From contig JACOXZ010000011.1 of assembly GCA_016182105.1 (NCBI GenBank), positions 1,218-65,217 on the forward strand: 64,000 nt of DNA, given 5' to 3'. Below, piece after piece: positions 1,216 through 58,502 of this stretch. The stretch is from Candidatus Liptonbacteria bacterium. Its GTDB lineage: Bacteria; Patescibacteriota; Minisyncoccia; UBA6257; 2-01-FULL-56-20. How positions within the stretch are numbered: position 1 is the first letter of the stretch; each line of letters begins with the position of its first letter. Made by a program: the position numbers and the translations under genes. A model generated the notes under the pieces. The model saw only the letters and a list, made by a program, of their open reading frames with translations, was not told the DNA's origin and made no database searches.

Positions 1216-2466
1216 ATGGCGGAAATCAAATTGCCTGATACGAAAGCGCTCAAAGTGACGATTGAAAAACAGCTCGTAAAATCCATTGATGAGGTCTCGA
1301 TCGTGGACTTGATCGACCTCTTTGTTTCTTATGCCTACGCGAGCAGGGCCTCGGACATCCATATTGAGCCAACAGCTGACACCGTGAGGGTCCGTTTCCG
1401 GATAGACGGCATTCTTCACGATATTTTCGATAAAATCGGCGTAACTAAAAGCCTCCATAACGAACTTATCAGCCGCATCAAGGTACTCTCTGGCTTACGG
1501 ACCGACGAGCACTTTTTGCCCCAGGACGGCCGCTTCAAGGCCAAGACTGATCACGTGGGCAATATTGACGTCCGGGTCTCGATTATGCCCACCCACTACG
1601 GAGAGAACGCGGTTATGCGGATCTTAGCCGAGACCCAAACTTTTGAGATTATAGACCTTGGTTTCTCGAAGCCTGACCTTGAGCGGGTGAGGCGGGCTAT
1701 TGAAAAGCCCTACGGCATGATCTTGGCCAATGGTCCCACAGGATCAGGCAAGACCACCACGCTTTACACGATCTTAAAGAAACTCAATAAACCAGAAGTC
1801 TCGATGATTACGATTGAAGACCCGGTGGAGTATTCGCTTGAAGGTACGACCCAAATTCAGGTCGACCCCAAAGCCGGCCTAAACTTTGCAAACGGTCTCC
1901 GCTCGATTCTGCGTCAGGACCCGAATGTCATCATGGTCGGCGAGATCCGCGACCAGGAGACAGCCGGGATTGCGGTCAATGCCGCCTTAACCGGTCACCT
2001 TCTTTTATCAACCCTTCACACCAACGATTCAGCCACTACTTTTCCGCGTTTGATTGACATGGGTGTGCCGCCGTTTCTTGTGGCTTCCACTTTGAACATT
2101 GCCATGGGCCAGCGCCTTGTTCGAAGGCTCTGCCCTGACTGCAAAAAAGAAAAAATTTTGAGCCCAGCGGAGGTTAAAAGTTTAAGCGAACTTGTTCCGG
2201 GAGTTGAATCTAAACCTAAGAAATATTACGCCGCCCAAGGCTGCAGCAAGTGCGGCCAGAGCGGCTACCAGGGTCGGATCGGCATCCGGGAGGTTTTGGA
2301 AGTGAATGATGAGATAAGAAAGCTCGTGATGAATCGAGCAAGCTCGCAGGAGATTAAACAAGCCTCGATAAAAAACGGCATGGTGACTATGGTCCAGGAC
2401 GGTTTAGAGAAGGCGATAAGCGGCATAACAAGCATTGAAGAGGTTCTCCGAACGGTTCGCGAGTAA
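1216..2466 (+). CDS. pilB: type IV pilus assembly / type II secretion ATPase (PilB/GspE family, short form)
   Basis: Walker A GPTGSGKTTT, Asp/His boxes and a C-terminal CxxC...CxxC zinc motif. 416 aa. Confidence 0.9.
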   Translation: MAEIKLPDTKALKVTIEKQLVKSIDEVSIVDLIDLFVSYAYASRASDIHIEPTADTVRVRFRIDGILHDIFDKIGVTKSLHNELISRIKVLSGLRTDEHFLPQDGRFKAKTDHVGNIDVRVSIMPTHYGENAVMRILAETQTFEIIDLGFSKPDLERVRRAIEKPYGMILANGPTGSGKTTTLYTILKKLNKPEVSMITIEDPVEYSLEGTTQIQVDPKAGLNFANGLRSILRQDPNVIMVGEIRDQETAGIAVNAALTGHLLLSTLHTNDSATTFPRLIDMGVPPFLVASTLNIAMGQRLVRRLCPDCKKEKILSPAEVKSLSELVPGVESKPKKYYAAQGCSKCGQSGYQGRIGIREVLEVNDEIRKLVMNRASSQEIKQASIKNGMVTMVQDGLEKAISGITSIEEVLRTVRE

Positions 2467-2478
2467 TTTAAACAAAGG

Positions 2479-3558
2479 ATGGTAGTCAAGCCCCACAAGT
2501 TTACCGAAGGAATTTTTGAGCACGTCGCAACTCAGGAGAAGATAAATTTCGCCCGCCACCTTTCTTTAACCATCAAGGCCGGTCTTCCACTTTTCGAGGG
2601 GCTCAAAATCATCAAAGGCCAGATCGTCTCCAAAACTTTAAAGAAAGTCATTGACGAGTTGATTGATGACGTGAATAAGGGCCAGTTTTTGTCGGACGCT
2701 CTTCAAAGACACCGGCATCTTTTCGGAGAATTTTTTATAAATATCATCAGAATAGGCGAGGCGAGCGGCACTTTGGCCTCGAATCTTCTCTATCTTGCAG
2801 AAGAGATGAAAAAGTCCAAGACTCTTCGAGGCAAAATCCGTTCGTCTATGATCTATCCCGTAATTATTCTTATTGCCACCCTCGCCATCACGTCACTTCT
2901 CATGTTTTTCGTCTTCCCCAAAATCCTTCCGGTTTTCGCAAGTTTGAATATCAAACTGCCGATCACGACCAGAATTATGATTGGCAGCGTGAATTTCCTT
3001 TTGGCAAACTGGCTAAAACTTGTTATTGGAATCGCAGTCGCGGTAATTGGCTTCCGGGCGCTTATCTTTCTTAATGGTTTTCGGTTTATTTTGCATAGGA
3101 TCGCGTTTTTTATACCTGTGCTCGCAAGACTGATCACTCACATTAATATGGCTAATTTCTCGAGGGTCACGGCCGTGCTCCTTAAAAGCGGCGTAAAGAT
3201 CGTGGAGGCAGTGACGATTACAAGCAAAACCTTCAATAACTTAGTCTATCGTCAGGAACTTTTGGCCGCGGCTGAAGAGATAAGGAAAGGCGGGCAACTA
3301 GGCGTCTATCTTTCAAAGAGAAAAAAATTTTTTCCGCCACTGCTCTCCGGTCTCATTACAATAGGGGAGAACACAGGCAATCTCGAAGATAATCTTTTTT
3401 ACCTTGCCGATTACTACGGCGAAGAAGTGGATGCTTCCCTCCGGAACCTCACGGCCTTGATCGAACCGCTTTTGCTTTTAGTTATGGGGCTTGTTGTCGG
3501 CTTCGTGGCGCTCTCGATTGTTACGCCGATCTACTCCATTACCCAAGGCATTAAATGA
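2479..3558 (+). CDS. pilC: type IV pilus inner-membrane platform protein PilC/GspF
   Basis: 359 aa polytopic protein with duplicated GspF-type domains. It directly follows pilB. Confidence 0.85.
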   Translation: MVVKPHKFTEGIFEHVATQEKINFARHLSLTIKAGLPLFEGLKIIKGQIVSKTLKKVIDELIDDVNKGQFLSDALQRHRHLFGEFFINIIRIGEASGTLASNLLYLAEEMKKSKTLRGKIRSSMIYPVIILIATLAITSLLMFFVFPKILPVFASLNIKLPITTRIMIGSVNFLLANWLKLVIGIAVAVIGFRALIFLNGFRFILHRIAFFIPVLARLITHINMANFSRVTAVLLKSGVKIVEAVTITSKTFNNLVYRQELLAAAEEIRKGGQLGVYLSKRKKFFPPLLSGLITIGENTGNLEDNLFYLADYYGEEVDASLRNLTALIEPLLLLVMGLVVGFVALSIVTPIYSITQGIK

Positions 3559-5315
3559 GGAACCGGCAGGGACTCACTTTTATTGATGTTGTTGTTTCGA
3601 TCGGCATCATTGGTATTCTCTTTGTCGGCATTTTTGCCACCTATTCCTCGATTTTGGACGTTATAAACAATTCCGAGAGACGAGGAGCGGCAGCCTCTAT
3701 CTTAAATAGGCAAATCGAGATTATCCGAAATCTGCCCTATAACCAGGTGGGCACAGTAGGCGGCGTGCCTTCCGGTATTATTCCTCAGGAACAGACTCTT
3801 CAGGCCTCGGGACTTACATTCGTCATAAAAACCACTGTTCGGAACATTGACGATCCATATGATGGCACCTTGGGCGGGAACCCCAATGACACAGCGCCGG
3901 CCGACTATAAGCTCGCGGAGCTCGAAGTCAGCTGCTCAAGCTGCGGGAGTTTCGTGCCATTGATTTTGACTACTACAGTCTCTCCTAAAAATTTGGAAGC
4001 CGCGAGCACGAACGGATCTATCTTCGTGAATGTCTTCGATGCGAGCGGAATCGGCATCTCGGGAGTCACGGTTCATGTGGTAAACGCAAGCATTACCCCG
4101 CCCCTAGACCTTTTTGACACGACAAACGCAAGCGGCGTTCTCCAACTTGTGGGCGTGTCAACAAGCACGCAGTCTTATCGGATTGACGTGAGTAAAACCG
4201 GCTATTCATCCGACAAAACCTACCAGCCGGGCGACCCCTCAAACCCTAATCCTCTGAAACCCCATGCGACGGTCGCGGCTCAAACAGTAACCCAAGTGAG
4301 TTTCGCGATTGACCGGGTGAGCACATTAAACGTTCGGACCTCGGACGTTGTCTGTTCGTCCGTCTCCGGACAAGATTTCACTCTTCAGGGGTCTAAACTT
4401 ATCGGTACTGGTCCGGATGTCTTGAAATTTTCGACGTCCTCGGCCACTGACGGGAGCGGCCTCAAGACTTTCAATAATCTTGAATGGGATACCTACAACA
4501 TCAGTCGTTCGGGAACGACTAATTACCTGGTCGGCACCATGCCTTTCTCTCCGTTAACCATAAACCCCAGTTCAACTCAAGATTTTCGATTTATTCTTGA
4601 GCCGTCTTCACCGGATGGGCTCCTTGTTATTGTTAAAGATTCGGGAAGCGGCGCAGTTATAAACGGCGCTTCAGTGAATCTCTCCAAGACGGGGTTCTCC
4701 CAGACTTTGATTACCGGACGCAATTTTTTGCGGCAAACCGATTGGTCGGCCGGTGAATATTCTAGTCAAGACGGCGGCATTGATGTTTCCTCGCCTGCCG
4801 GCACTTTAAAACTTCTTCTCTCGGCTTCGAGTACTTACAGCACCAGCACTGTGAGTTGGCTCACCTCGAATACTTTCAATGTCGGTTCTTCAACGGCCAC
4901 TTATTATACTTTAAGCTGGAGCCCGACCACCCAACCGCCCCAAACCGGCCCTGACAGCTTGAAATTCCAAATCGCTTCGAACAATGACAACGCCACTTGG
5001 AATTTTGTTGGCCCGGACGGCATGGCCGGGAGTTATTACACGACAAACGGCGCGGGCGTAGCCGGCCACAACAACCGTCGTTTTCTACGATATAAAGTAT
5101 TTATGAAAACGGATGACGAGAACTTTACGCCTTCACTCGATGATCTAAGCATTGAATTCAACTCCATCTGCGTGCCTGGCGGCCAGGTTCTTTTTAGCGG
5201 TCTTACCGCCGACGCTTATAGTATCACAGCCACGGCCGTTGGTTATTCTTTAGCATCAAGTTCTGTTTCGGTCGTAAATGGCTTCAATCAAACCGAGGTT
5301 TTAATGTCGCCTTAA
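3555..5315 (+). CDS. large prepilin-type N-terminal domain protein (pilus tip or minor pilin-like)
   Basis: N-terminus MRNRQGLTFIDVVVSIGIIGILFV is a class III signal (GLTFID plus hydrophobic helix). 586 aa, S/T-rich. Confidence 0.6.
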   Translation: MRNRQGLTFIDVVVSIGIIGILFVGIFATYSSILDVINNSERRGAAASILNRQIEIIRNLPYNQVGTVGGVPSGIIPQEQTLQASGLTFVIKTTVRNIDDPYDGTLGGNPNDTAPADYKLAELEVSCSSCGSFVPLILTTTVSPKNLEAASTNGSIFVNVFDASGIGISGVTVHVVNASITPPLDLFDTTNASGVLQLVGVSTSTQSYRIDVSKTGYSSDKTYQPGDPSNPNPLKPHATVAAQTVTQVSFAIDRVSTLNVRTSDVVCSSVSGQDFTLQGSKLIGTGPDVLKFSTSSATDGSGLKTFNNLEWDTYNISRSGTTNYLVGTMPFSPLTINPSSTQDFRFILEPSSPDGLLVIVKDSGSGAVINGASVNLSKTGFSQTLITGRNFLRQTDWSAGEYSSQDGGIDVSSPAGTLKLLLSASSTYSTSTVSWLTSNTFNVGSSTATYYTLSWSPTTQPPQTGPDSLKFQIASNNDNATWNFVGPDGMAGSYYTTNGAGVAGHNNRRFLRYKVFMKTDDENFTPSLDDLSIEFNSICVPGGQVLFSGLTADAYSITATAVGYSLASSSVSVVNGFNQTEVLMSP

Positions 5316-5321
5316 AATAAA

Positions 5322-5924
5322 ATGAATATCAAAAAACTAGCTGGGTTTACCTTTATCGAAGTCGTGATCGTGATCGCGATTTTCGTGGTGATTTTCACTG
5401 TGATTGCGAGCTTTGGCGAGAATACCAGTTTGCTTTCGAACCTAATAAACAAAAGCTTGCAAGCGGAACAAGACCTAAGGCAGACTTTCCAGGTTATAGT
5501 AACTGAAATCCGTTCAGCAGGGCCCTCAAGTCTTGGCGCCTATCCGATTGAGTCGGCCGCTACTTCGTCTTTCGCTTTTTTCAGCGACATTGACGAGGAC
5601 GGCGTTTTTGAGCGGGTAAGATACTTCGTGGGGACTAGCACGCTCGAGAAAGGAGTGATTGAGCCTATTGGGAACCCATTGGTTTACGCGACCTCGAGCG
5701 AGTCTGTAAAAATAGCAGTTAATTACCTGCTTATGGCCTCGAGTACTTTTGAGTATTATGACGCTAATTACACCGGGCTAGAGGCGTCGCTTAGCACGCC
5801 TATAGACGTAACCAAGATCAGGATCGTTAAAGTCACGGTTACGGCTGACGTTAACCCAGGAGCGGCCCCGAAGCCAGTGACCTTCACCAACATCATTAAC
5901 GTGAGAAATCTTCGAAGCAACTGA
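5322..5924 (+). CDS. pseudopilin / minor pilin (prepilin-type N-terminus)
   Basis: The sequence ...GFTFIEVVIVIAIFVVIF sits near the N-terminus. Confidence 0.6.
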   Translation: MNIKKLAGFTFIEVVIVIAIFVVIFTVIASFGENTSLLSNLINKSLQAEQDLRQTFQVIVTEIRSAGPSSLGAYPIESAATSSFAFFSDIDEDGVFERVRYFVGTSTLEKGVIEPIGNPLVYATSSESVKIAVNYLLMASSTFEYYDANYTGLEASLSTPIDVTKIRIVKVTVTADVNPGAAPKPVTFTNIINVRNLRSN

Positions 5925-6025
5925 TCCCGTTAGAAGCCGCGATCGCGTTGCTAAAACTCCAAATATCTATCAATGTACAGTCATTACAATGAACTCGCCT
6001 AGATCGCGATCTGCTTCTAACGGGA
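5925..6025. repeat. family-1 miniature TIR element, copy E1 (about 101 bp; TIR tcccgttagaagccgcgatcgcg / cgcgatctgcttctaacggga)
   Basis: 22-nt terminal inverted repeats read directly. The internal sequence is homologous to E2, E3 and E4. The element ends at the ATG of the downstream gene. Confidence 0.8.
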
Positions 6026-7497
6026 TGAAGAACAAAAAAGGACAACTTTCGCTTCAGGTTTTGATCTTCGGAGCGGTCTCGATAATCGTTATCAGCGGCT
6101 TTGCGCTTTGGGCTTCATCGTTTTTGAAATTCTCTCTTAGGGATTTCAATAAGACATTAGCTTTCTCAATTTCGGAGGCTGGCATTGAGTATTACCGCTG
6201 GCACCTGGCGCACGCGCCACAGGACTTTCAGGACGGCACTGGCGGCCCCGGCCCTTATGTCCACAACTATTACGACAAAAACGGAATTGTCCTCGGCCAG
6301 TTCAGTTTGGAAATCACCCCGCCAGCCACGGGCTCAACGATCGTAAAAATCAAGAGCACTGGCCAGCTTGCGGCCGACTCGAGTATTCAGAAAATAATTC
6401 AGGTTTCGATGGGCATCCCGTCTTTTGCCAAATACGCGGTCGCGGCCAATGACATCATTCGTTTTGGAGACGGCACAATAGTTTACGGACCGATTCATTC
6501 AAACGGCGGCATCCGGTTCGACGGCTACGCTTATAATTTGATAACCAGCGCCGTAGCCGACTATGACGACCCGGATCACGGCGGCGGCAATGAATTCGGA
6601 GTCCATACTCATCGCAATGAAGGAGGCCAAAGCGGAGTGGATAACAGCTACCGACCCAAAGAAGCGCCGCCGCCGCCAGCTCCCGACCGGCCGGATGTTT
6701 TCGGCGCTGGCCGTGAGTTTCCGGTGCCGGCCGTTGATTTCGTTGGCATTACCCAAGATTTGAGCCAAATCAAAGCCGATGCTCAAACAAACGGTTTTTA
6801 TAGGGCGAGCTCAACGGCTTACGGCTATGAAGTGATTCTTAAAACCGATGACACATTTGACCTTTACCGGGTCAATTCTTTAGTGTCTTCGCCTTCTTCA
6901 AATTGCACTAAATCGCAAGATCAAGCCAATAATCAAGGCGGCTGGGGAACCTGGACTATTAATTCCAAAACCTTATTGGGTAATTATGTTTTTCCGGCCA
7001 ATGGTTTGATATTTTTGGAAGACGATGTTTGGGTGAGAGGACAGGTGGACGGCGGCCGTTTGACCATCGCTTCAGCTCGGTTTCCGGATAATCCCTCAAC
7101 AAGAAGCAGCATTACTTTAAACGACAATCTTTTATATACCGATTACAACGGTCTTGATGCCATCGCTTTAATGGCGCAGAAAAATATCAATGTCGGCTGG
7201 CAGAGCCAAGATATCATCAGAATTGATGGGGCTTTGGTCGCCCAAAACGGCTGGGTGGGAAGATATTATTACAATAGTTTCTGTTCGCCGTACGATTTAA
7301 GAGACACCATTACCACTTACGGGTCGCTCGTCTCAAGCCAGCGCTACGGTTTTGCTTACACTACCGGTGTTCAAACTGTTTCCGGCTATCCGACGAGAAA
7401 CCTAATTTACGATTCCAATTTATTATACGGCCCGCCGCCGAGTTTCCCCTTGACCAGCGATCAGTATACACAAATATCCTGGGACGAAGTAAAATAG
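6025..7497 (+). CDS. pilus-associated protein with pilin-like hydrophobic N-terminus (PilX or minor-pilin-like)
   Basis: Starting at ATG 6025 the protein reads MKNKKGQLSLQVLIFGAVSIIVISGF. The ORF-track start at 5989 lies inside the repeat. Confidence 0.5.
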   Translation: MKNKKGQLSLQVLIFGAVSIIVISGFALWASSFLKFSLRDFNKTLAFSISEAGIEYYRWHLAHAPQDFQDGTGGPGPYVHNYYDKNGIVLGQFSLEITPPATGSTIVKIKSTGQLAADSSIQKIIQVSMGIPSFAKYAVAANDIIRFGDGTIVYGPIHSNGGIRFDGYAYNLITSAVADYDDPDHGGGNEFGVHTHRNEGGQSGVDNSYRPKEAPPPPAPDRPDVFGAGREFPVPAVDFVGITQDLSQIKADAQTNGFYRASSTAYGYEVILKTDDTFDLYRVNSLVSSPSSNCTKSQDQANNQGGWGTWTINSKTLLGNYVFPANGLIFLEDDVWVRGQVDGGRLTIASARFPDNPSTRSSITLNDNLLYTDYNGLDAIALMAQKNINVGWQSQDIIRIDGALVAQNGWVGRYYYNSFCSPYDLRDTITTYGSLVSSQRYGFAYTTGVQTVSGYPTRNLIYDSNLLYGPPPSFPLTSDQYTQISWDEVK

Positions 7498-7508
7498 TTT
7501 AAATTCAA

Positions 7509-7955
7509 ATGAGAAAAGGACTTACGTTAATCGAAGTTTTGATCACCATCGTTCTCGTCGCCATTTTAGGCAGCTTTGTCATCGTCTCCTTGAATCCGGT
7601 GGGCCAGCTAGCTTCGGCCAGGAACAACCAGCGGCTCTCAAATTTAAACACCATTTTAAATTCCATTAGTCAAAACGCGGCTGACAGCAAAGGCATTTTT
7701 ACCTGTTTAGGGGGGCCCATCCCCACCTCGACTAAAAGGATGGCGATTGGTGCGGGCAATTATGATATAGCTTCTTGCCTTATTCCGATTTATGCTTCGG
7801 TTTTGCCTTTTGATCCCAAAGACCCTTTAGCGCATTTCACGAGCCAAACCGATTATGACACCGGCTACACAATTATAAGAAACGCCTCAAGCGGGGCCCT
7901 CACAGTAAGCGCGCCTTCGGCTGAGTCCGGCAAGGTTATCTCGGTCAGCCGCTAA
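7509..7955 (+). CDS. type IV pilin
   Basis: MRKGLTLIEVLITIVLVAILGSFV is a canonical prepilin cleavage/methylation N-terminus. 148 aa. Confidence 0.7.
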   Translation: MRKGLTLIEVLITIVLVAILGSFVIVSLNPVGQLASARNNQRLSNLNTILNSISQNAADSKGIFTCLGGPIPTSTKRMAIGAGNYDIASCLIPIYASVLPFDPKDPLAHFTSQTDYDTGYTIIRNASSGALTVSAPSAESGKVISVSR

Positions 7956-16888: not shown

Positions 16889-17932
16889 ATGTCCCTCTTT
16901 GATAATTTTTTTAGAGACATCGGCATTGACCTTGGCACGGCTAATTCGCTCATATATCTCAAAAATCACGGCATTGTCGTGAATGAGCCTTCGGTTGCAG
17001 CCGTGAATACCAAAACCAGTCAGATTTTGTCGGTCGGCGAGGAGGCCAAGAAAATGTTTGGCCGCACGCCGGCTCACATAAACGTGATCCGGCCACTTGT
17101 GGCTGGCGTGATCTCGGATTTCGAGATGACCCAGGAATTGCTCCGCCAGTTTTTAAAAAGAGTGAGCCGTGGAACTTTTGCGAGCTTCAGGCGCGGGGTG
17201 CTTGCGATTCCGAATAGCTTGACCGAAGTCGAACGAAAGTCAGTCGAAGACGTGGCCTTGAATGCCGGCTGCAGCAAAGCCTACCTTGTGGAGTCACCGG
17301 TTGTGGCGGCCTTGGGAGCTGGGTTGCCAATCAACCTTCCGGTCGCGAGCCTCATTGTTGATGTTGGCGGCGGAACCACTGATATTGCGGTCATATCCCT
17401 GGGCGGGGCAGTAGCTTCTAAGACCCTGAAAATTGCCGGCGACCGGATGAATGACGATATTGTACGTTTCGTAAAAGATGAATTTCGGCTGGTAATCGGC
17501 GAGCCCACAGCCGAGCTTGCGAAGATAACGGCGGGCTCGGCAGCGCCGATTGATGAGCGGCTCGAGGTGACTTTACGCGGCCGGGATGCGGGAACCGGCC
17601 TACCCCGCGAGGTGGCGATCAAAAGCAATCAGGTTCGAACCGCCATCTCCAAATCCCTGCGCTCGATTATTGATTCCGTAAAAGAAGTGATTGAAGTCGC
17701 GCCGCCTGAACTTGTGGGCGATATGTTAAAGCAGGGGATTTATCTCTGCGGCGGCGGCGCGCTCCTCCGAGGTTTTGACGAACTTATTGAAAAAGAGACA
17801 TCGGTCATGACAACCATCGCGGAGGACCCCCTCACATGCGTCGCTCGCGGCTTGGGCCAGATTATCGATAATTTTGAACTTCACCGAACTTTACTCGACA
17901 ACCCTTTGAAGCCGCCGACAATTAATCTATAA
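16889..17932 (+). CDS. mreB: rod-shape determining protein MreB
   Basis: Actin-fold motifs IGIDLGTANS and DVGGGTTD. Confidence 0.85.
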   Translation: MSLFDNFFRDIGIDLGTANSLIYLKNHGIVVNEPSVAAVNTKTSQILSVGEEAKKMFGRTPAHINVIRPLVAGVISDFEMTQELLRQFLKRVSRGTFASFRRGVLAIPNSLTEVERKSVEDVALNAGCSKAYLVESPVVAALGAGLPINLPVASLIVDVGGGTTDIAVISLGGAVASKTLKIAGDRMNDDIVRFVKDEFRLVIGEPTAELAKITAGSAAPIDERLEVTLRGRDAGTGLPREVAIKSNQVRTAISKSLRSIIDSVKEVIEVAPPELVGDMLKQGIYLCGGGALLRGFDELIEKETSVMTTIAEDPLTCVARGLGQIIDNFELHRTLLDNPLKPPTINL

Positions 17933-21912: not shown

Positions 21913-23533
21913 ATTTCTTCGCAATTGCCGCTTTAATGAACGCCACAAAAAGCGGATGCGGCGCCATTGGGCGCGATTTGAGCTCGGGGTGAAATTGGGT
22001 GCCTACGAAGAACGGATGGTTCTTCAGCTCGATGATTTCCACGAGATTTGTTTCAGGGTTCACACCGGAGAAAACTAAGCCTGCCTTCTCTAGCTTTTCT
22101 CGATACTTGTTGTTGAACTCATAGCGATGGCGGTGGCGCTCTCTCACCATATTTGTTCTATACGCTTTTTCGGCGATTGTGCCTTTCGTGATCCGGCACT
22201 TGTATGCGCCAAGCCGCATCGAGCCCCCGTAGTGTTCTTGGGCGATTTTCCGCGCTTGCTCCGGTAAAACAGCAATCACGGGGTGGGGCGTTTTGGGGTC
22301 GATTTCTGTGGTGTACGCGCCTTTGAGCTTGGCAATATGCCGCGCAAATTCGATTGTTGCAAGCTGCATTCCGTAGCAGAGGCCAAAGTAGGGGATTTTA
22401 TGCTCCCGCGCGTAGCCGATTACCTTGATTTTCCCTTCAATACCGCGGCCCCCAAATCCGCCAGGAACGATAATTCCGGCGTAGCTCTCCAAGGTCGTGA
22501 GGGCCCGGGGATTCGTCTCAAAGACCTCCGCGTTAATCCAATCGATCACCGGCTTCCGTCCAAGTTCCCAGGCCGCGTGCTTTATGGCTTCGATCACCGA
22601 GATATAAGAATCACTCAAAGTAAAGTCGCCGGTTGCGAAGTATTTGCCGACGATGCCGATCCTCACTGGTTTTTTAGCGCGCTGAATTTTTCTCTGGAGC
22701 TTACGCCAAGTTGAACCGTCTCTTTTTCGCGGCTTGAGGCTGAATTTTTTCAAAATTCGGTCGGCGAGTTTCTCCTTCTCAAAATTTAGCGGCACCTCGT
22801 AGATGTTTTTGATGTCGGGCGCCGAGATGATGTCTTCAGGCAAGACGTTGCAGAAGATTGAAATTTTTTCTTTGCGAGGTTTGTCAATCGGGATCACCGA
22901 GCGCGCGAGGATGATGTCTGGTTGTAGTCCGGCGGAGTTCAGGGTCCTCACGGCGTACTGGGTCGGTTTTGTTTTCATCTCGCCCAAATTTTGGGGTACG
23001 GGGAGGTAGCTCACGAGGACGAGGATGAGAGAGGCGGGATCTTTAAGCTTCATAATACGAGCGGCTTCAAGGAAAAGGAGGTTCTGGTACTCGCCAGCGG
23101 TGCCGCCTATCTCAACCAGCGCAAACTGCGCTTTGGATTTTTTGGCGGCAAGCTTGATGCGTCGGATGACCTCTTCCGGAATGTGCGGCACGACTTCCAC
23201 GCACTTGCCGCCGTACTCGAGCCGCCGCTCCCGGTCAATCACTGTCTGGTAGACTAATCCGGTCGTCATATAATTCGGCCGAAGGATATTCGTGTCGAGG
23301 AATCGTTCGTAGTTGCCGATATCCTGGTCACACTCGAGTCCGTCCTCGGTCACAAACACCTCCCCGTGCTCAACGGGGTTCATGGTGCCGGCATCAACGT
23401 TTATGTAGGGATCGATTTTGACTGCGGTGACTCGAAAGCCCCGGTCCTTAAGTAGGGCTGCAATGGCGGCAGAGCCGACGCCCTTGCCGATACCCGACAT
23501 TACACCACCCACAACGAAAATGTATCGCGTCAT
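21911..23533 (-). CDS. pyrG: CTP synthase
   Basis: N-terminal GGVMSGIGKG and a C-terminal glutamine amidotransferase domain with GLCYGMQ. Confidence 0.9.
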   Translation of the reverse strand: MTRYIFVVGGVMSGIGKGVGSAAIAALLKDRGFRVTAVKIDPYINVDAGTMNPVEHGEVFVTEDGLECDQDIGNYERFLDTNILRPNYMTTGLVYQTVIDRERRLEYGGKCVEVVPHIPEEVIRRIKLAAKKSKAQFALVEIGGTAGEYQNLLFLEAARIMKLKDPASLILVLVSYLPVPQNLGEMKTKPTQYAVRTLNSAGLQPDIILARSVIPIDKPRKEKISIFCNVLPEDIISAPDIKNIYEVPLNFEKEKLADRILKKFSLKPRKRDGSTWRKLQRKIQRAKKPVRIGIVGKYFATGDFTLSDSYISVIEAIKHAAWELGRKPVIDWINAEVFETNPRALTTLESYAGIIVPGGFGGRGIEGKIKVIGYAREHKIPYFGLCYGMQLATIEFARHIAKLKGAYTTEIDPKTPHPVIAVLPEQARKIAQEHYGGSMRLGAYKCRITKGTIAEKAYRTNMVRERHRHRYEFNNKYREKLEKAGLVFSGVNPETNLVEIIELKNHPFFVGTQFHPELKSRPMAPHPLFVAFIKAAIAKK

Positions 23534-23560
23534 AATTTAGGATGCGGTATAATTATAGCA

Positions 23561-23959
23561 ATGTCAGAAGAATCTTTTCCATCCTCTGATCATGTTGCGC
23601 TCGAGGCAGATTTAAAGCGGCTCACCCTTGAAATTCAGAGACAAGAAAAATTGCCCGAGAATCGGAATTTGGGCGGTGAAGCGCTCTTGAAGAAATCCTT
23701 GGTCTCGATCGCGCCCACTCCCGAAGAGGCGGGGCTGAAGAGCACGCCCTCTAAGGGCCCTCTCCCGGATTACGCGGAGACCTCCGGCGCCAAAACCAAA
23801 TTAGAAATAGAATATTTTCTGGACTTGGCTTTTCACCAAGGCCTTGACAGAGCCGTGAGAGAGGCGAGAAAGTCGAGCCCCTTTGTGCTTGACGCCTTCC
23901 ACGATGCTTTGGCTGGCAAGCTTTATCCTGAACTCAAAAAAAGGGGGATTCTAAAGTAA
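23561..23959 (+). CDS. hypothetical protein, stop/start overlap with the downstream ATPase
   Basis: 132 aa. It ends at taATGa overlapping the start at 23959. Confidence 0.35.
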   Translation: MSEESFPSSDHVALEADLKRLTLEIQRQEKLPENRNLGGEALLKKSLVSIAPTPEEAGLKSTPSKGPLPDYAETSGAKTKLEIEYFLDLAFHQGLDRAVREARKSSPFVLDAFHDALAGKLYPELKKRGILK

Positions 23960-26317
23960 TGACGGGTTTTTATCTCCTTTTAGGGCTTCTTGCAGCAGTA
24001 CTCATAGGCGGCTTTTATTTTTTGCGTCTTATATCAAAAAGCCGCGCTTTACGGGAATCCCTGGACTTAGGCCTCCTTTTTATCAAAATCCCCAAAGAAG
24101 CCCTTCTCGCTGGCGCTCAAGAGAAAGAGGTGAAGCTTAAAGCGGAGCTCGCCAACTTCGAACAGCTACTGGCCAACCTCGCCTCTTTTAAAAAAACTTT
24201 TGTTTTTGAAGTGGCTGTTCCTCATGTGGGCGAGGAAATTCATTTTTATCTCGCCGTGCCCAAAGTCGCAATAGAGGCGGCGCGAAGCCAGGTTCAAAGC
24301 TTGTGGAGCGGAGCAAGCGTGGCTTTGGTTTCAGACGATTACAGCATTTTTAATCCTCAAGGGACAGTAGCATCTGCTTATCTTCTTCTTAAAGAAAATT
24401 ATAGCTTGCCCATTCGAACCTATAGCGAACTTAACGCCGATTCTTTTGCCTCAATTGTCGGCGCTTTCTCGAAGATCAGCGAAGTTGGCGAGGGAGCGGC
24501 CCTGCAGGTGGTCTTGAAGGGTGCTGGTCAGAACCCCAAGAAGAAAGTTCAGGGATTCATTCGGTTTTTGAAGCGAGGCGAAACATTGAAAAAAGTTTTT
24601 GGCCGTGAATCGGCTTTTGGTCTATCCGTAATAGGGGAGGCTCTAAATCCCGAAGAGCCGGCAAAAGAAAAGCAGGAAAAAGTTGTTGACGAAGAAGCTG
24701 TTCGGGCGCTTGAGGCTAAAATTTCTAAGCCTCTTTTTCAAGTAAACGTAAGGGTGGTTACATCCGCGCCCTCACCTTTTCAGGCTGACGGTATCTTAGA
24801 CGGCATCTTGGCCGGCTTTTCGCAGTTTGGGGCGCCCCGTCGGAACTCTTTTAAGATTGTTAAGCCCAAAAACACCGCGGAGATGGTTCGTAAGTTTATT
24901 TACCGGACCTTTGAGTCAGGCGAGACAATGATTTTATCGAGCGAAGAGGTGGCGAGCTTCTGTCATCTGCCAACTGCGGGAACCGAGATCCCGCGCGTGA
25001 TGTGGCTCAAGGCCAAAGAAGCAGCCCCGCCTTCAAATCTTCCGGCAAGCGGTGTTTTGATAGGCGAGAGCGTGTTCCGCGGGGAAGTCAAAAAGATTTA
25101 TCTCGCTGACGAAGACCGCCGGCGCCACGTCTATATGATCGGCCAGACCGGCACAGGCAAATCCACCCTCCTCGCCAATATGATTGCCCACGACATAAAA
25201 AAGGGCAAAGGCGTGGCTATGATTGACCCGCACGGCGATCTCACAGAGCACGTTTTAGGCCATATTCCCCAAAGCCGAAGGGAGGATTTAATCTATTTTA
25301 ACCCCTCGGATATTTTGAAGCCTTTAGGATTAAACATGCTTGACTACAATTTCGATAGGCCAGAGGAAAAAACTTTTATCGTAAACGAGATGCAGGGAAT
25401 TTTTAACAAGCTTTTTCCTCCGGAGACCATGGGCCCGATGTTCGAACAGTATATGAGAAACGCCCTACTGCTCCTTATGGAAGATATGCCTAATGAGAGA
25501 GCGACCCTGATTGAGGTGCCGAGGATTTTTACCGACCAATACTACCGCGAACGAAAACTCAAACGAATCAGAAATCCAGTTGTTATTGATTTTTGGGAAA
25601 AGGAGGCGGTTAAGGCCGGAGGCGAGGCATCGCTCGCCAACATGACTCCCTACGTCACCTCGAAGTTCAATAATTTTATTTCGAACGACTATATGCGGCC
25701 GATAATTGGCCAGATAAAATCAGCCTTTAATTTCCGCGAGGTGATGGATAGCGGCAAGATCCTGCTCGTGAACCTTTCCAAAGGCAGGATCGGCGACATA
25801 AACGCCGGCCTCTTAGGTATGATTTTCTCCGGCAAAATCCTTATGGCCGCCTTATCAAGGGTTGATATTACGGAAGCCGCAAAGCGCCGGGATTTCAATT
25901 TCTATATTGACGAATTCCAGAATTTCACGACGGATTCAATCAGCGTAATCCTCTCTGAGGCCAGAAAATACCGTTTATCAGTTTATTGCCCAGCTTACGG
26001 AAAAAATACGGGACGCGGTTTTCGGGAATGTGGGGTCGCAGGTTGTTTTTCGTGTGGGCGCGACTGACGCAGAGTTTTTAGTGAAGCAATTCGAGCCGAC
26101 CTTTAGCCAAAGCGATCTTTTAAACATTGATAACTTCAATGCCTATGTAAAGATGCTTGTTTCCGGCGAGACCGCGAAGCCATTTAACATAGAGACATAT
26201 CCCTTGGGCGTGGGCAGCCTTGAGGCCGCGGACGAGCTAAAAGTTTATTCACGAGAGAAATACGGAACGGAGCGCCAAGTTGTTGAAGAAGAAATTTATA
26301 AGAGGCTACGAGGCTAG
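23959..26317 (+). CDS. membrane-anchored P-loop ATPase of the TraD/VirD4/TrwB coupling-protein type, interrupted by a +1 frameshift near 25980
   Basis: N-terminal TM, Walker A GQTGTGKST, and EARKYRLS in frame 1. The conserved continuation IAQLTEKIRDAVFGNVGSQVVFRVGATDAEF is in the +1 frame (ORF 26030-26317). Confidence 0.55.
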
Positions 26318-26337
26318 ATTATGTTATAATAGCAATA

Positions 26338-26849
26338 TGAAAAATATGATTTTTAGCCGAAAGGGGATGACGACTTTTATGTCTATTATGATCGCGATCA
26401 TAGTGCTCGAGCTCGTGGGTATTTTCTATTTTGCTGAGAAGAAAGGTTTTTTGGGCGGGAAGCCGATTGTGCCGGTAACCGTGAGCCTGGTTTCCGAATC
26501 CCAGATTATTGATTACCTTAAGAAAAACCTGCTTGCGCCCTCGGTGGGCAGTTGCACCTACCGGACTTTGGGCGAGAGCGAGCTTACGGCGATGCCAGTT
26601 CATACCTATATTTGGGCTTTGTGTATTGATTTTTATTCAGACAAGACCGTTAGCAGTCCCGTTGATCTTATAGCAAGAACAAGGGATGGCGGAATTGAGA
26701 TTGCTTCACATAAAATACCAAACGAAGCAAACTATCGAAGAGATGTGAAAGACATTTTCCCTTCCCAGATTCAGAATCTAATTTTTGGCTATCCCGCAAG
26801 CGACAAGATAAAAGAAATGCAGACCGAACTTCCGAGACCGTACCTTTAA
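26338..26849 (+). CDS. hypothetical membrane-anchored protein
   Basis: MKNMIFSRKGMTTFMSIMIAIIVLELVGIFYF. No family recognised. Confidence 0.35.
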
Positions 26850-26874
26850 ATAGTTTCCTTGCGCCTTGATCTTT

Positions 26875-28152
26875 TTATCCGAGGCGGTCGTTCTGGGTGA
26901 AGATCTTTAAACCCTTAAGCCACAGGCGGAGCGCTGTCCATCGCGGCATGATCGAGAAAAGATAGTTCAGCTCAACAAGCCCCTTCAATATCCAGCCCCA
27001 AAATCCCGCGACAACCAGTGGCCCGATTTTAGCGACCGCGTACTTCCCGCCGACCGGAGTTATGTAGGGATACTCCATTGATTTATAAACTTTATGATCC
27101 GCAGTTTTAGTTAGGCCATTTTCCATTTTTATATCCTCGATTATGTTTTCTGAAACGACGTTGGCCTGTGATATCGCGGCTCGAGCCACGCTCGGAATCG
27201 GTTTTTCCGTTCGAGGATCGTAGAAACAGATCGTATCGCCTAACCCGTAGACTTTTGAGCGGAATTTTAAATCGGGAGTCTGCGGCAGGCATTCCATTTT
27301 GCCGCGAACAACCACTCGGCCGCGCGCCTCATTCTTTAAGGGCAGCTTTGAGAGGGCTTCCGCGGCTTTGATGCCTCCTGCCCAAATCAAGATATCAAAT
27401 GGTTCTATACGGCCGCTCGTGAGATATGCCTTCTTTTTCTCAACCCTAGTCAGAGATTCGTGAGCGAAGATCTTAACACCCACCCTTTTTAGCCGTTTCT
27501 CGACCAACTTAATAACCCTTGTGTCAAAACCAGGCAGGATCGTTCTCCCCGCTTCGATTATCGCGACCTCAAGTTCGCACTTCCTAAATTCTTTCTCGAG
27601 TTCGCCGCACCATACCTTGAGCTCTGAGGCGAGTTCAACGCCAGTTGCGCCGCCGCCCACAACGAGGATTTTAATATTCTCCTCACCGGCCATCCCTAAG
27701 TTCCAGACGGAGTCGCGGATACGGATAGCATCAGTAAAGGTTTTAAGCGCGAGAGCCGAAGACGCCAGGCCTGGAATATCGAAATAATTGACCTCCGCGC
27801 CCAAAGCGATAACAAGATAGTCGGCTAGAATTTTTTCTTTGCCCCCGAGAATTACTTCGCCACGGATAAGATCAGCGGCTGTGACTTCTTTCTGGAGGAA
27901 GGTGAGGCTTAGATTTTTAATAAGCGGTTTGATCTTATAGGCCGCGACTTCGTGAAGTTCGGCAATATTGGCCAGTGATTTGGAGGTCGTGGCCACTTCA
28001 TAAAGAAGCGGGGTGTAAGTATGGTGGTCGTTTCTATCAATCAAAACCACTTCATAATCTTTAAGGAGCTGAAGAGATCTTAATTTTTTGGAAATTTTGA
28101 TCGCGGCGCGTAGGCCGCCGAACCCAGCGCCCAAGATCACGATTTTTTTCAT
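26875..28152 (-). CDS. NAD(P)/FAD-dependent oxidoreductase (type II NADH dehydrogenase-like)
   Basis: Rossmann GxGxxG motifs MKKIVILGAGFGGL and VVGGGATGVE. Confidence 0.7.
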   Translation of the reverse strand: MKKIVILGAGFGGLRAAIKISKKLRSLQLLKDYEVVLIDRNDHHTYTPLLYEVATTSKSLANIAELHEVAAYKIKPLIKNLSLTFLQKEVTAADLIRGEVILGGKEKILADYLVIALGAEVNYFDIPGLASSALALKTFTDAIRIRDSVWNLGMAGEENIKILVVGGGATGVELASELKVWCGELEKEFRKCELEVAIIEAGRTILPGFDTRVIKLVEKRLKRVGVKIFAHESLTRVEKKKAYLTSGRIEPFDILIWAGGIKAAEALSKLPLKNEARGRVVVRGKMECLPQTPDLKFRSKVYGLGDTICFYDPRTEKPIPSVARAAISQANVVSENIIEDIKMENGLTKTADHKVYKSMEYPYITPVGGKYAVAKIGPLVVAGFWGWILKGLVELNYLFSIMPRWTALRLWLKGLKIFTQNDRLG

Positions 28153-32982: not shown

Positions 32983-33573
32983 ATGGCCCATCCAAAGGAG
33001 GAAAAAACGGTAATTATCGTAAAGCCCGACGGCGTGAAACGCGGGTTAATCGGCGAGATTATGAAGCGAGTTGAGCAGCGCGGGTTAAAGATTATTGCAG
33101 TAAAGATGATTCAGGCTGACAAGCCTCTGATTGACAAGCACCTGCCCAAGAGCAGGCAGTGGATTATTGATGTCGGAAACAAAAGTTTGGAGGACTATAA
33201 AAAATATAAACTTGACCCTCGAAAGCATATCGGGACCGCTGATCCGTTCAAGATTGGAATGTTGGTGCGAAAGTGGCTTTTTGATTATTGGACGTCAGGT
33301 CCTGTGGTAGCGTTCGCGGTTCAGGGAGTGCACGCGATTGACATGGTGAGGAAGATTGTCGGGAATACCTTGCCGGCCAAGGCCGAGATGGGAACGATTA
33401 GAGGGGACTATTCGGTTGATTCGGCGATTTTAGGAAATTTAGGGAAACGGGCGGTGCACAACATCGTCCACGCCTCGGGGAGTCCGGAAGAAGCAAGGAA
33501 TGAGTTCAAGAAGTGGTTTAAACCAAATGAGCTTCATTCTTACGATCGCGCCGATGACGATATTATGTTCTAG
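32983..33573 (+). CDS. ndk: nucleoside diphosphate kinase (with an internal insertion)
   Basis: IIKPDGVKRGLIGEI, and a GTIRGDY....N..HAS segment that matches Ndk GTIRGDF...N..HGSD. Confidence 0.7.
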   Translation: MAHPKEEKTVIIVKPDGVKRGLIGEIMKRVEQRGLKIIAVKMIQADKPLIDKHLPKSRQWIIDVGNKSLEDYKKYKLDPRKHIGTADPFKIGMLVRKWLFDYWTSGPVVAFAVQGVHAIDMVRKIVGNTLPAKAEMGTIRGDYSVDSAILGNLGKRAVHNIVHASGSPEEARNEFKKWFKPNELHSYDRADDDIMF

Positions 33574-34342
33574 ATTTTAAGAAAGTTTTGATAATTTGAT
33601 TTAAATCTCCGCCTAAGATTTTTTCAATATTGTGGAATTTTTTGCCGAGGCGGTGGTCGGTGACGCGGTCTTCGGGGAAATTGTAAGTGCGAATTTTCTC
33701 GGCGCGCTCGGCCGAGCCGATCTGTTCTTTCCTGAGGCCGCCGATTTTTTGCTGTTCCTCGATTTTCTTTTGTTCAAAAAGCTTGGCCCTTAAGATCGCG
33801 AGCGCTTTTTCCTTGTTGGCTGATTGAGACCGCTCAACTTGAGAAGAAACCACAAGGCCGGTTGGCTTGTGCAGTATCCTCACAGCCGTTTCCACCTTAT
33901 TAACGTTCTGTCCGCCCGGGCCCGAGGAACGAAAAAAAGAGATTTCCAAATCTTGGCTCATGATTTCTACTTCTTTAGTTTCGACTTCCGGGAGTACCGC
34001 GACCGAGGCTGTGGAGGTATGAACCCGGCCGGACTTTTCGGTTTTTGGTATCCTTTGCACGCGATGCACACCTGATTCATTCTTTAAACTTTGAAAGACG
34101 TCATCGCCCGCGATTTCAGCAACCAGGGTTTTGTAGCCGCTTAAGGTTGTTTGGCTATAGTCTAAAATTTCAAAGCGCCAGAGGCGGCTCGCGGCATAAC
34201 GTTGATACATTCTTGCCAAATCCGCGGCGAAAATAGCGGCCTCATCGCCGCCCGCTCCGGCTCTAATCTCTAATATAACTTTATCCTTGCCCATAGCTTC
34301 AAATTTGCTTTTGAGTATAGTATTATAAAGGTGATGAATCAA
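33563..34342 (-). CDS. release factor 1-like protein lacking N-terminal domain 1 (259 aa)
   Basis: GGQ motif (SGPGGQNVNKVETAVRI) and PKT tripeptide in VHRVQRIPKTEKSGRVHTS. Confidence 0.6.
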   Translation of the reverse strand: MIHHLYNTILKSKFEAMGKDKVILEIRAGAGGDEAAIFAADLARMYQRYAASRLWRFEILDYSQTTLSGYKTLVAEIAGDDVFQSLKNESGVHRVQRIPKTEKSGRVHTSTASVAVLPEVETKEVEIMSQDLEISFFRSSGPGGQNVNKVETAVRILHKPTGLVVSSQVERSQSANKEKALAILRAKLFEQKKIEEQQKIGGLRKEQIGSAERAEKIRTYNFPEDRVTDHRLGKKFHNIEKILGGDLNQIIKTFLKSRT

Positions 34343-49457: not shown

Positions 49458-50465
49458 ATGTTTACTCGGAAAATCGGCATTGATTTGGGCACGGCGAATA
49501 CGATTGTTTTTGTTCCGGGAAAGGGATTCATTATTAACGAGCCGACGATTGTGGCAATGAATAAACCCGAGAACTCTATCCTCGCTGTAGGCGTTGAGGC
49601 CAAAGAGATGATAGGCCGAACTTCCGAGAACATCTTGGCCTACCGTCCCTTAAAAGACGGCGTGATTGCCGATTACTATATCACGAAGGCCATGCTCACT
49701 TATTTCATCTCCAAAGCCGTGAGCTGGTTTAATTTGTTTAAGCCGGAGGTGGTGATCTCGGTGCCGGCCGGCATAACCCAGACCGAGCGCCGTGCCGTCG
49801 TGAATGCCGCTCGGGAGGCAGGGGCGAGGCGGGCCTATGTTGTCCGCGAGCCGGTACTCGCGGCCCTAGGCGCAGGCATCCCCATTAATGCCCGCTCTGG
49901 CAATATGGTGGTGAATATCGGAGGCGGCACATCCGAGGTGGCTGTGATTGCTTTGGGAAGCATTGTTTCATGGACAAGTTTGAGGGTCGCTGGCAACCGC
50001 TTTGATCAGGCCATTCGTGATTATGTGAAGAAAAAGTACGCCCTCGCGATCGGCGAGCAGACTGCCGAGGCGGTGAAGATTGAGATAGGATCGGCAATGC
50101 CCACCAAAGAAAAGATGGAATACGAAATTCGCGGCCGAGACTTGGTTTCGGGTCTGCCTAAGGATGTGGCCTTGACCTCGAATGAAATTGCCGAAGCCCT
50201 GAACCCATACCTCATAGAAATCGCCGGTTCAGTGCAGAATGTTTTTAACGTGACCCCGCCAGAGCTTGTGGCCGATATTATGGAGAAAGGGATGGTTTTA
50301 TCCGGAGGCAGCGCCCAACTCCACTCACTTCCAGAATTTTTTGAGCGGACCTTAGGTGTTCAGGCTTACGTGGCCGAAGATCCTCTTTTTTGCGTGGCCA
50401 AAGGCACGGGTCTCATCTTGAGCCACCTCGACACTTACAAAAGGACGCTTTCGAATAAACAGTAA
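49458..50465 (+). CDS. MreB-like actin homologue (second copy)
   Basis: IGIDLGTANT, NIGGGTSE. Confidence 0.75.
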   Translation: MFTRKIGIDLGTANTIVFVPGKGFIINEPTIVAMNKPENSILAVGVEAKEMIGRTSENILAYRPLKDGVIADYYITKAMLTYFISKAVSWFNLFKPEVVISVPAGITQTERRAVVNAAREAGARRAYVVREPVLAALGAGIPINARSGNMVVNIGGGTSEVAVIALGSIVSWTSLRVAGNRFDQAIRDYVKKKYALAIGEQTAEAVKIEIGSAMPTKEKMEYEIRGRDLVSGLPKDVALTSNEIAEALNPYLIEIAGSVQNVFNVTPPELVADIMEKGMVLSGGSAQLHSLPEFFERTLGVQAYVAEDPLFCVAKGTGLILSHLDTYKRTLSNKQ

Positions 50466-53383: not shown

Positions 53384-53761
53384 ATGCCTAACGTGAGGCC
53401 CACGAAGAAAATCTTGATTGTTGAGGATGAAAAGCCAGCGGCTAAGGCCTTTGGGCTTAAACTAGGCCGCGCTGGCTTTGAATCCGAAGTTGCTTTTGAC
53501 GGCGTAGACGCGCTCGCGATATTAGCCAAAAAAAACTTCGACCTTATCCTTCTTGACCTTGTGATGCCGCGGATGGATGGCTTTGAGTTCTTGGCTGAGC
53601 TAAAAAACAGGAATATAAAAACACCGGTCATCGTGACAAGTAGTTTGAGTCAGGAAGAAGACGCCAAAAGAGCCAAAGATTTGGGCGCTATAGATTATTT
53701 TGTGAAATCCGATACGCCGATTGCGGATATCGTCGAGCACGTGAAAAAAGTTTTGAACTAA
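53384..53761 (+). CDS. single-domain response regulator
   Basis: KKILIVEDE...DLVMPRMDG. Confidence 0.7.
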   Translation: MPNVRPTKKILIVEDEKPAAKAFGLKLGRAGFESEVAFDGVDALAILAKKNFDLILLDLVMPRMDGFEFLAELKNRNIKTPVIVTSSLSQEEDAKRAKDLGAIDYFVKSDTPIADIVEHVKKVLN

Positions 53762-55446
53762 TGATTGACACCGGAAAAATAGAATCCATCCTTTTGCGGG
53801 AAAATTATGTCACCTCCGATGAGATCAAAAAGGCCGAGGAGTTTGGGAAATCCCGCAATACATCGCCGATTGAGTATCTATTAACCGAGGGACTCATAAC
53901 CAAAGATCTTTTGGGTCAGGCCATTGCCGAATCTTTTGGGGTGCCTTACGCCGATTTGAATTCCAACGCGCCGTCTAAGGAGCAAGTTTTAAAAATCCCC
54001 GAGGAGACTGCCAAAAAATTTCACATCGTCCTTTTCAAAGAAAGCGAGCTCGAAGTCGTAGTTGCAACCGATGATCCAGAGCAGGAAGGGCTAAAAGAGG
54101 CGCTCGATAACATTTTCAATCCCTTTAATGTTTTTGAAAAAGTCAAAAGGACAACGGTTGCTTATTCTCTGCCCGAGGACATTGAGTCGGTTTTTATTTA
54201 TTACCGGAAGCCCCTAGAGACAAGATTCACTAAAATCATCGAAGCCAAGAAACGGGTCGCGCCCGAGATCATTGAAGAAATTTTGGAAGACGCCATTGCC
54301 TTCCGTGCTTCTGACGTCCATTTCGAACCGCAGGAAAAGGAAGTGCTTATCCGCTTCAGGATTGACGGTGTTCTTCACGAGGCCGGCCGGATTCCAAAAG
54401 AACACTATGAAAACATTTTAAACAGGATAAAGGTCCAGTCACATCTTCGGATTGACGAGCACCTCTCCGCTCAAGACGGCGCGATGAGATACGAGAGGTC
54501 TGGAGGAGCTGTTGACTTACGTGTCTCCGTAGTGCCAACTCTTGACGGCGAAAAAGTCGCGATCCGTATACTTGCTCAGTACATTCAGAGTTTTTCCCTT
54601 GGCGATTTGGGGTTCTCACACTCGGATCAGGAAGGTATTTTGGAGGCGGGAAAATTGCCTTTTGGAATGATTTTAGTCACCGGCCCAACTGGGTCGGGAA
54701 AAACCACCACTCTTTACGCCCTGATTAAGATTCTGAACCGTCCAGAGGTAAATATCACAACCATTGAAGACCCAGTGGAATATAAGATAGTTGGGGTAAA
54801 CCAAATCAGAGTGAACCCTGCGACTAATCTCACTTTTGCCGAAGGTCTTCGTTCGATTGTGAGGCAGGACCCCAATATCATCTTGGTTGGAGAGGTCCGC
54901 GACCGCGAAACCGCTGAAATTTCCGTAAATGCCGCCTTAACCGGTCACCTTCTCCTTTCCACTTTCCACGCCAATGACGCCGCAACCGCTATCCCTCGGC
55001 TCTTAGACATGGGCGTTGAGCCATTTCTTCTCGCTTCAACGCTTGAGGTCGTGATCGCCCAACGGCTCACTCGCCGAATTTGCGTAGCCTGCCGTAAGAG
55101 CGTCTCAATGAGTTCCGAGGAGCTCTTGCATCTCCATCCCGCCATAAGTCGATATTTCCCCGGGAAGAGTTTTAACCTTTACAAAGGCAAGGGCTGTAAT
55201 ACTTGCGGCAAGACAGGTTATAAAGGGAGAATAGCCATTTTTGAGATCATCCGGATTACGCCGGAGATGGAAGACTTGATTTTGAAAAACCCGCCGACCT
55301 CCGAGATTTGGAAGCTGGCGAGGCGTCAGGGGTCTCGCTCGCTTTTTGAGGACGGTTTAGAGAAAGTTAAAGCCGGCATCACTACTTTAGAAGAACTTTT
55401 CCGAGTGGCTAATCCGCCAGAGATGACTTTAGGCGGCCTGGAGTAA
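53761..55446 (+). CDS. pilB: type IV pilus assembly ATPase PilB/GspE (long form with N-terminal domain)
   Basis: GPTGSGKTTT plus a C-terminal Cys cluster. Paralogue of 1216-2466. Confidence 0.85.
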   Translation: MIDTGKIESILLRENYVTSDEIKKAEEFGKSRNTSPIEYLLTEGLITKDLLGQAIAESFGVPYADLNSNAPSKEQVLKIPEETAKKFHIVLFKESELEVVVATDDPEQEGLKEALDNIFNPFNVFEKVKRTTVAYSLPEDIESVFIYYRKPLETRFTKIIEAKKRVAPEIIEEILEDAIAFRASDVHFEPQEKEVLIRFRIDGVLHEAGRIPKEHYENILNRIKVQSHLRIDEHLSAQDGAMRYERSGGAVDLRVSVVPTLDGEKVAIRILAQYIQSFSLGDLGFSHSDQEGILEAGKLPFGMILVTGPTGSGKTTTLYALIKILNRPEVNITTIEDPVEYKIVGVNQIRVNPATNLTFAEGLRSIVRQDPNIILVGEVRDRETAEISVNAALTGHLLLSTFHANDAATAIPRLLDMGVEPFLLASTLEVVIAQRLTRRICVACRKSVSMSSEELLHLHPAISRYFPGKSFNLYKGKGCNTCGKTGYKGRIAIFEIIRITPEMEDLILKNPPTSEIWKLARRQGSRSLFEDGLEKVKAGITTLEELFRVANPPEMTLGGLE

Positions 55447-55449
55447 GCG

Positions 55450-56520: not shown

Positions 56521-56521
56521 G

Positions 56522-56950: not shown

Positions 56951-56952
56951 CG

Positions 56953-58497: not shown

Positions 58498-58502
58498 CAT
58501 TT

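Follow-up and report, generated by a model that had tools for sequence, protein, structure and literature searches.

The deposited sequence of an orphan VirD4/TrwB-like ATPase gene from Candidatus Liptonbacteria carries an apparent 17-nucleotide deletion

Type IV coupling proteins (T4CPs; VirD4, TrwB, TraG, TraD, DotL, and Cag-beta) are built from an N-terminal membrane anchor, usually of two helices, and an FtsK/HerA-type P-loop domain that contains the Walker A and Walker B motifs, a helical insert between them, and an ARKxxLxxxxxxQ sensor strand. A recent survey found 5,713 VirD4-like T4CP homologs in 2,918 Patescibacteria genomes, just 148 of them close to virB4; genomes with such a homolog hold about two on average, the authors suggest that the orphans may have been exapted to other functions, and Ca. 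Southlakia epibionticum can do without its t4cp homolog (Quinonero-Coronel et al. 2025, PMC12102498). Here we analyze a 64-kb window, meaning the whole stretch of DNA under study, from a 65,767-bp metagenome-assembled genome (MAG) contig of Candidatus Liptonbacteria bacterium in GenBank (locus tags HYT13_016xx), and within it a P-loop ATPase gene of this kind. In Liptonbacteria the locus represents a chromosomal orphan P-loop ATPase of VirD4/TrwB-like type whose orthologs occur across Patescibacteria. As deposited, its sequence almost certainly differs from that of its ancestor by one deletion of 17 nt.

The window protein shares with the T4CPs the N-terminal anchor followed by the FtsK/HerA-type P-loop domain, both Walker motifs, the helical insert, and the sensor strand. 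When intact, it is predicted to comprise one N-terminal membrane helix, a DUF8128 domain, and an FtsK/HerA/VirD4-type nucleotide-binding domain. It thus differs from most coupling proteins in having one predicted membrane helix rather than two, and from the group as a whole in the ~300 residues of DUF8128 that separate the anchor from the ATPase domain. The window copy is also broken, unlike the coupling proteins, and no VirB4, relaxase, or other type IV secretion system (T4SS) component was found among the 63 window open reading frames (ORFs) scanned against Pfam. In being chromosomal, far from virB4, and widespread, the gene fits the published picture of the Patescibacteria orphans, and the DUF8128 subfamily presumably falls among the 5,713 homologs (PMC12102498); the 17-nt deletion sets the window copy apart from them. 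The gene and the features discussed below are arranged as follows.

23561-23959, + strand: small upstream ORF of 132 residues (MBI2033775.1, HYT13_01615), adjoining the ATPase start.
23959-25980, + strand: frame-A part of the ATPase gene, codons 1-674, with the membrane helix, the DUF8128-type N-terminal domain, Walker A and B, and EARKYRLS.
23959-24033, + strand: N-terminal hydrophobic helix, residues 1-25, MTGFYLLLGLLAAVLIGGFYFLRLI.
25141-25167, + strand: Walker A, GQTGTGKST, of the P-loop nucleotide-binding domain.
25900-25920, + strand: Walker B, FYIDEFQ, of the same domain.
25957-25980, + strand: EARKYRLS motif, at the end of the frame-A part.
25977-25980, + strand: ATCA at the deletion junction, where 17 nt are missing (the Leu-Thr-Met-Ala-His codons plus 2 nt).
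25981-26067, + strand: aberrant tail of the first reading frame, 28 out-of-frame codons (VYCPAYGKNTGRGFRECGVAGCFSCGRD) and then a TGA stop at 26065-26067.
25979-26317, + strand: C-terminal 112 codons of the ATPase in the +1 frame, QFIAQLTEKIRD...YKRLRG, with the stop at 26315-26317.

The upstream reading frame (ORF A, 23959-26067, + strand) encodes 702 residues and is deposited in GenBank as MBI2033776.1, a “DUF87 domain-containing protein”. The +1 frame is open from 25949 and, from the CAG at 25979, reads the conserved block QFIAQLTEKIRDAVFGNVGSQVVFRVGATDAEFLVKQF...YKRLRG, although the C-terminal ORF as called mechanically begins only at GTG 26030. As a tblastn query against the window, the repaired protein aligns in two clean segments, one in frame 1 and one in frame 2, without further stops, and no second copy of the gene was found in the 64-kb window. 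A first-pass annotation of this DNA had described a disrupted coupling-type ATPase gene with its transmembrane segment, Walker A, and EARKYRLS in frame 1 and its conserved continuation in the +1 frame. That description holds: all three elements, plus Walker B, lie in ORF A, the gene belongs to the VirD4/TraD/TrwB superfamily, and the switch from 25979 falls within a few bases of the site first noted. The joined length of about 785 residues proposed there agrees with the 786 obtained from the sequence as it stands, but becomes 791 once the missing codons are restored.

Alignment with the closest relative’s gene (L001) at the nucleotide level reveals a single 17-nt gap at 25976-25980, while all the other indels across the gene are multiples of three (3, 3, 6, and 6 nt). 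The shortened junction reads CGTTTATCAGTTTATT in the deposited sequence. Seventeen nucleotides are missing because the loss of five codons (15 nt) is combined with a 2-base overlap of the flanking Ser and Gln codons: in the window, TCA (25978-25980) and CAG (25979-25981) share two bases. The effect on the frame is -17, equivalent to +1. Protein comparison leads to the same site. Searching a large protein collection yielded 3,762 relatives; the top 120 are 779-803 residues long and come from Patescibacteria (Liptonbacteria and Paceibacteria); the closest match, P0001 (787 residues), is 71% identical to the frame-A part. Relatives read EARKYRL[SN]-LTMAH-QFIAQL, and the window jumps from RLS directly to QFIAQL. 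The spacer between RKYRLx and Q[FY] is exactly five residues (consensus LTMAH) in 311 of the 316 pooled family sequences with a readable motif. Among the five exceptions, only the window product itself (P0126) is without the five residues; the other four are fragments that keep them, change frame further downstream, or enter contig-end sequence. The 28-residue aberrant tail likewise occurs, among retrieved family members with a readable motif, only in P0126.

The lost residues are conserved. A 45-sequence alignment shows no variation at A674, H675, and Q676 (P0001 numbering) and hardly any at L671 and T672. The AlphaFold 2 model of P0001 (mean predicted local distance difference test score 70.4) places LSLTMAH in a strand at residues 669-675, which follows the Walker B strand (642-647) and a helix (656-666); in the AlphaFold 2 model of the ortholog, a helix at residues 2-35 matches the N-terminal membrane anchor. 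A HMMER alignment to TrwB sets the deleted stretch against RKAGLRVVAGLQ, which we take to be the arginine/sensor region of the RecA-like core of FtsK/HerA/VirD4 ATPases. The deletion thus removes five of the seven residues of a predicted core β-strand past Walker B, including the invariant Ala-His. Translation of ORF A would stop after the 28 aberrant residues and leave the last 112 codons in the other frame, and no mode of decoding can rescue the protein because most of the core strand is missing from the sequence itself. We infer that the allele is null.

The junction also suggests how the deletion may have arisen. It reads ttATCAg in the window, and the codons for His-Gln are CAT CAA in two of three relatives, which supplies a second ATCA. 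With an ancestral reading of ...TTA TCA CTN ACN ATG GCN CAT CAG..., ATCA would thus have occurred twice, at a spacing of 17 nt. Two short direct repeats are a classic substrate for slippage or microhomology-mediated deletion, and the intervening sequence (ttATCA ... gcATCAg) could have been lost in one step by slippage or by microhomology-mediated end joining; the exact breakpoint is ambiguous inside the ATCA microhomology. Such a deletion would be irreversible once made. The allele would also be very recent, since the part downstream of the lesion shows no extra divergence (72% identity to P0001 downstream, 71% upstream). Ordinary bacterial pseudogenes formed by microhomology deletion show the same combination of a short out-of-frame deletion, an inferred 4-nt direct repeat, a premature stop, and otherwise intact downstream sequence, and nothing about the window case is unusual among them.

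The first-pass annotation had instead attributed the frame change to one extra T in gtttatt (25981-25987), as a sequencing error or a phase-variable tract. Removing one T does mechanically fuse the two frames (...RKYRLSVIAQLTEK...), yet the fused product reads ...RKYRLSVIAQL and still lacks the LTMAHQ found in every relative, including three invariant residues. This account requires two events, an 18-nt in-frame deletion and an insertion, in place of one 17-nt deletion. A tract of three Ts is also much too short to vary in phase by slippage. An extra T is therefore highly improbable as the cause, and no change in the length of the run could give back the normal protein. Comparison with orthologs, expected to show an uninterrupted frame, does so in that the 311 readable relatives pass the motif in one frame; the piece by which the window differs from them is, however, 17 nt and not a single base. 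Phase variation more broadly is excluded because the site contains no homopolymer or tandem repeat beyond the TTT, because what was deleted is unique sequence, and because a microhomology deletion could not revert. Functional recoding, by a programmed +1 ribosomal frameshift or by reassembly of 702- and ~95-residue pieces of a split gene, is no more credible than an added T. Both frames are open and overlap at 25949-26067, and GTG 26030 could start a C-terminal piece. Against this, sequence has been lost rather than gained, so that no decoding could bring back the LTMAH strand in the ATPase core; all 311 relatives with a readable motif keep one frame through the site; and no slippery or repeat motif is present. 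Genes with programmed frameshifts (prfB-type) combine a conserved frame change with a slippery or stimulatory motif, and the window gene has neither.

Whether the deletion exists in the sampled population is a finer question, and both alternatives raised at first reading, an authentic pseudogene and an assembly error, are retained. We lean toward a genuine variant over an assembler artifact. It is somewhat probable that the whole account applies, namely that an orphan VirD4/TrwB-like ATPase gene of Liptonbacteria has suffered a one-step, irreversible, recent 17-bp deletion that makes a null allele genuinely present as a population variant. It is quite possible, if less so, that the gene is an intact one of 791 codons from which 17 bases were lost locally in assembly, bubble-popping, or polishing, or for which a rare minority allele was chosen as consensus. 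In favor of such an error, the gene is strongly conserved across lineages, as is its synteny, its downstream part is as conserved as its upstream part, and it contains no second lesion. The population is heterogeneous (6 single-nucleotide polymorphisms between the MAG and the Logan contig L006), and the 702-residue product stands in GenBank as an ordinary coding sequence, so the site is uncurated. On the other hand, a 17-nt loss between 4-nt repeats is unusual for de Bruijn assemblers, which would need repeats of k-mer length or more. The assembly does not appear generally indel-ridden, since none of the other genes in the 64-kb window is visibly split, and overlapping ORF pairs there are separate genes, such as those for S2 and EF-Ts. 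A related contig that also appears interrupted (L007, described below) argues, if it is not chimeric, that the gene is expendable in this clade. Loss of the gene is plausibly tolerable, because the t4cp homolog of Ca. S. epibionticum is non-essential and genomes that carry such homologs hold about two (PMC12102498).

Several observations weigh against a real allele that arose in this way. The ATCA microhomology is a reconstruction from the codons of relatives. The sole independent same-strain contig, L006 (SRR12113430; 99.7% identical), matches the window exactly over 26072-27612 but begins 92 nt downstream of the site. A gapped DNA pattern across the site found no match in genome and metagenome contig collections, and targeted protein searches with the frameshifted tail and with the repaired junction yielded no relative closer than 84% identity (in the flanking region) and 74% identity, respectively. 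Finally, a local error of assembly or consensus would likewise leave an undecayed lesion in an otherwise highly conserved gene. The same two protein searches returned no second sequence with the aberrant tail, and an exact look-up of the 702-residue product among encoding contigs gave no match; a look-up of its sequence cluster gave some fragments ~90% identical. Two further contigs (L004 and L005, 89-90% identical) end before the lesion site. An indel bubble does not account for L006 breaking off at 26072, as a bubble from such an indel would close at ~25981.

Other homologs also appear disrupted. The contig L007 (GCA_900206355.1, OBEQ011164946.1) is from a sister strain, ~90% identical; compared over its positions 1-1706 with window positions 23307-24626, it tracks the window to codon ~222 of the ATPase gene and then diverges completely into ~386 nt of unrelated sequence. 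Translated, the divergent part looks HEPN/nucleotidyltransferase-like by eye, and the product called on this contig (P0127) ends at 240 residues. Either L007 is chimeric or the ATPase gene has been disrupted a second time, independently. Three metagenome homolog fragments (P0133, P0234, and P0247) change frame within ~30 residues of the motif, after AVFG, AHQ, and LILA; they were retrieved with a query that held the frameshifted tail, which biases the set, and their frame changes are probably sporadic assembly errors or pseudogenes. It is unlikely, though conceivable, that the orphan T4CP-like ATPase is being lost in this Liptonbacteria lineage through two independent disruptions, the 17-nt deletion and the break of L007 at codon ~222. 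If true, the two would amount to a natural knock-out and would mark the gene as dispensable for an episymbiotic lifestyle in groundwater.

The family assignment rests on the repaired protein. It exceeds the gathering scores of the Pfam models TrwB_AAD_bind, T4SS-DNA_transf, TraG-D_C, and DUF87, with 32.1 bits for PF10412 (cut-off 20.5), 30.2 for PF02534 (20.1), and 25.5 for PF12696 (22); unrepaired, ORF A passes only PF10412 (23.7) and DUF87. Relatives carry PF26449 (DUF8128, N-terminal), PF02534, PF10412, PF01935, and PF12696, and close Ca. Liptonbacteria relatives are named [quoted passage not shown] or “DUF87 domain-containing protein” in GenBank. Scores for the NCBIfam TraD/VirD4 models all fall well short of the cut-offs (best, TIGR03743 at 43.9 against 366 and NF045973 at 33.9 against 250). 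Because the Pfam T4CP models pass and the NCBIfam models fail, we assign the protein to the T4CP branch of the FtsK/HerA superfamily as a distant member; judged by sequence comparison, it is not orthologous to any characterized coupling protein. Fold comparison did not discriminate VirD4 from VirB4, HerA, or FtsK.

The gene sits among PBP2, L21, CTP synthase, the conserved small ORF, a 170-residue ORF, an NDH-2-like oxidoreductase, and PGK, with DHHA1, RNase H, MgtC, and AspRS genes beyond. The core of this arrangement recurs in L001, L008, and L009, each with L21, a small ORF of 119-137 residues before the ATPase, and PGK downstream. The ATPase had been described as lying next to pilus genes, from which a role in conjugation, competence, or DNA uptake was drawn. 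The nearest type IV pilus genes, however, lie 16 kb upstream (1216-7955) and 27.5 kb downstream (53761-59018), and the context gives the proposed link no backing because the gene occupies a conserved housekeeping neighborhood (L21, CTP synthase, PGK) away from pilus genes and with no adjoining T4SS gene. Each of the two pilus-like clusters contains a PilB-type ATPase (T2SSE), a PilC-type platform protein (T2SSF), and ORFs with an N-terminal methylation motif. Beside the downstream cluster is an ORF (59088-59456, + strand) of the 23S rRNA-intervening-sequence protein family (PF05635, bAvd-like).

Immediately upstream of the ATPase, the stop codon of the small ORF overlaps the ATPase start (TAATG, 23957-23961), which suggests a two-gene unit whose products are likely co-translated partners. 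This ORF is 52% identical to the 137-residue ORF at the same place in L001, and homologs also precede the ATPase in L008 and L009, so that it is conserved in four lineages. It has a C-terminal motif, LEIEY...AFH.G...F..DAFHDALAG.LYPEL.KRGI.K, and no Pfam match, and may be an uncharacterized partner protein. In L008, the small partner ORF and the ATPase are separated by an inserted PF05635-family gene (3599-3970).

Elsewhere, the window encodes two MreB paralogs (16889-17932 and 49458-50465) and a release-factor ORF (33563-34342, - strand) that matches only PCRF positions 98-194 and the RF-1 domain. The likely true start of the latter is ATG 34293 (MGKDKVILEIRAGAG...), and the whole N-terminal domain 1 (~100 residues) is absent. 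The DNA upstream of it appears to hold a + strand ORF that looks response-regulator-like by eye, and an N-terminal remnant is not evident there.

Taken by itself, a single out-of-frame deletion is an everyday mutation or an everyday assembly flaw and matters little. The lesion described here is an ordinary event in a known, already annotated gene family, and the locus is a dead gene or an assembly flaw, not a switchable gene; phase variation and repair through the T-run are untenable because the 17-nt deletion takes a strand of the catalytic core. The value of the result is corrective: the 702-residue MBI2033776.1 in GenBank is a truncated product and not the full protein. If reads confirm the deletion, the locus would be a natural null allele, in agreement with the non-essential T4CP homolog of a cultivated Patescibacterium.

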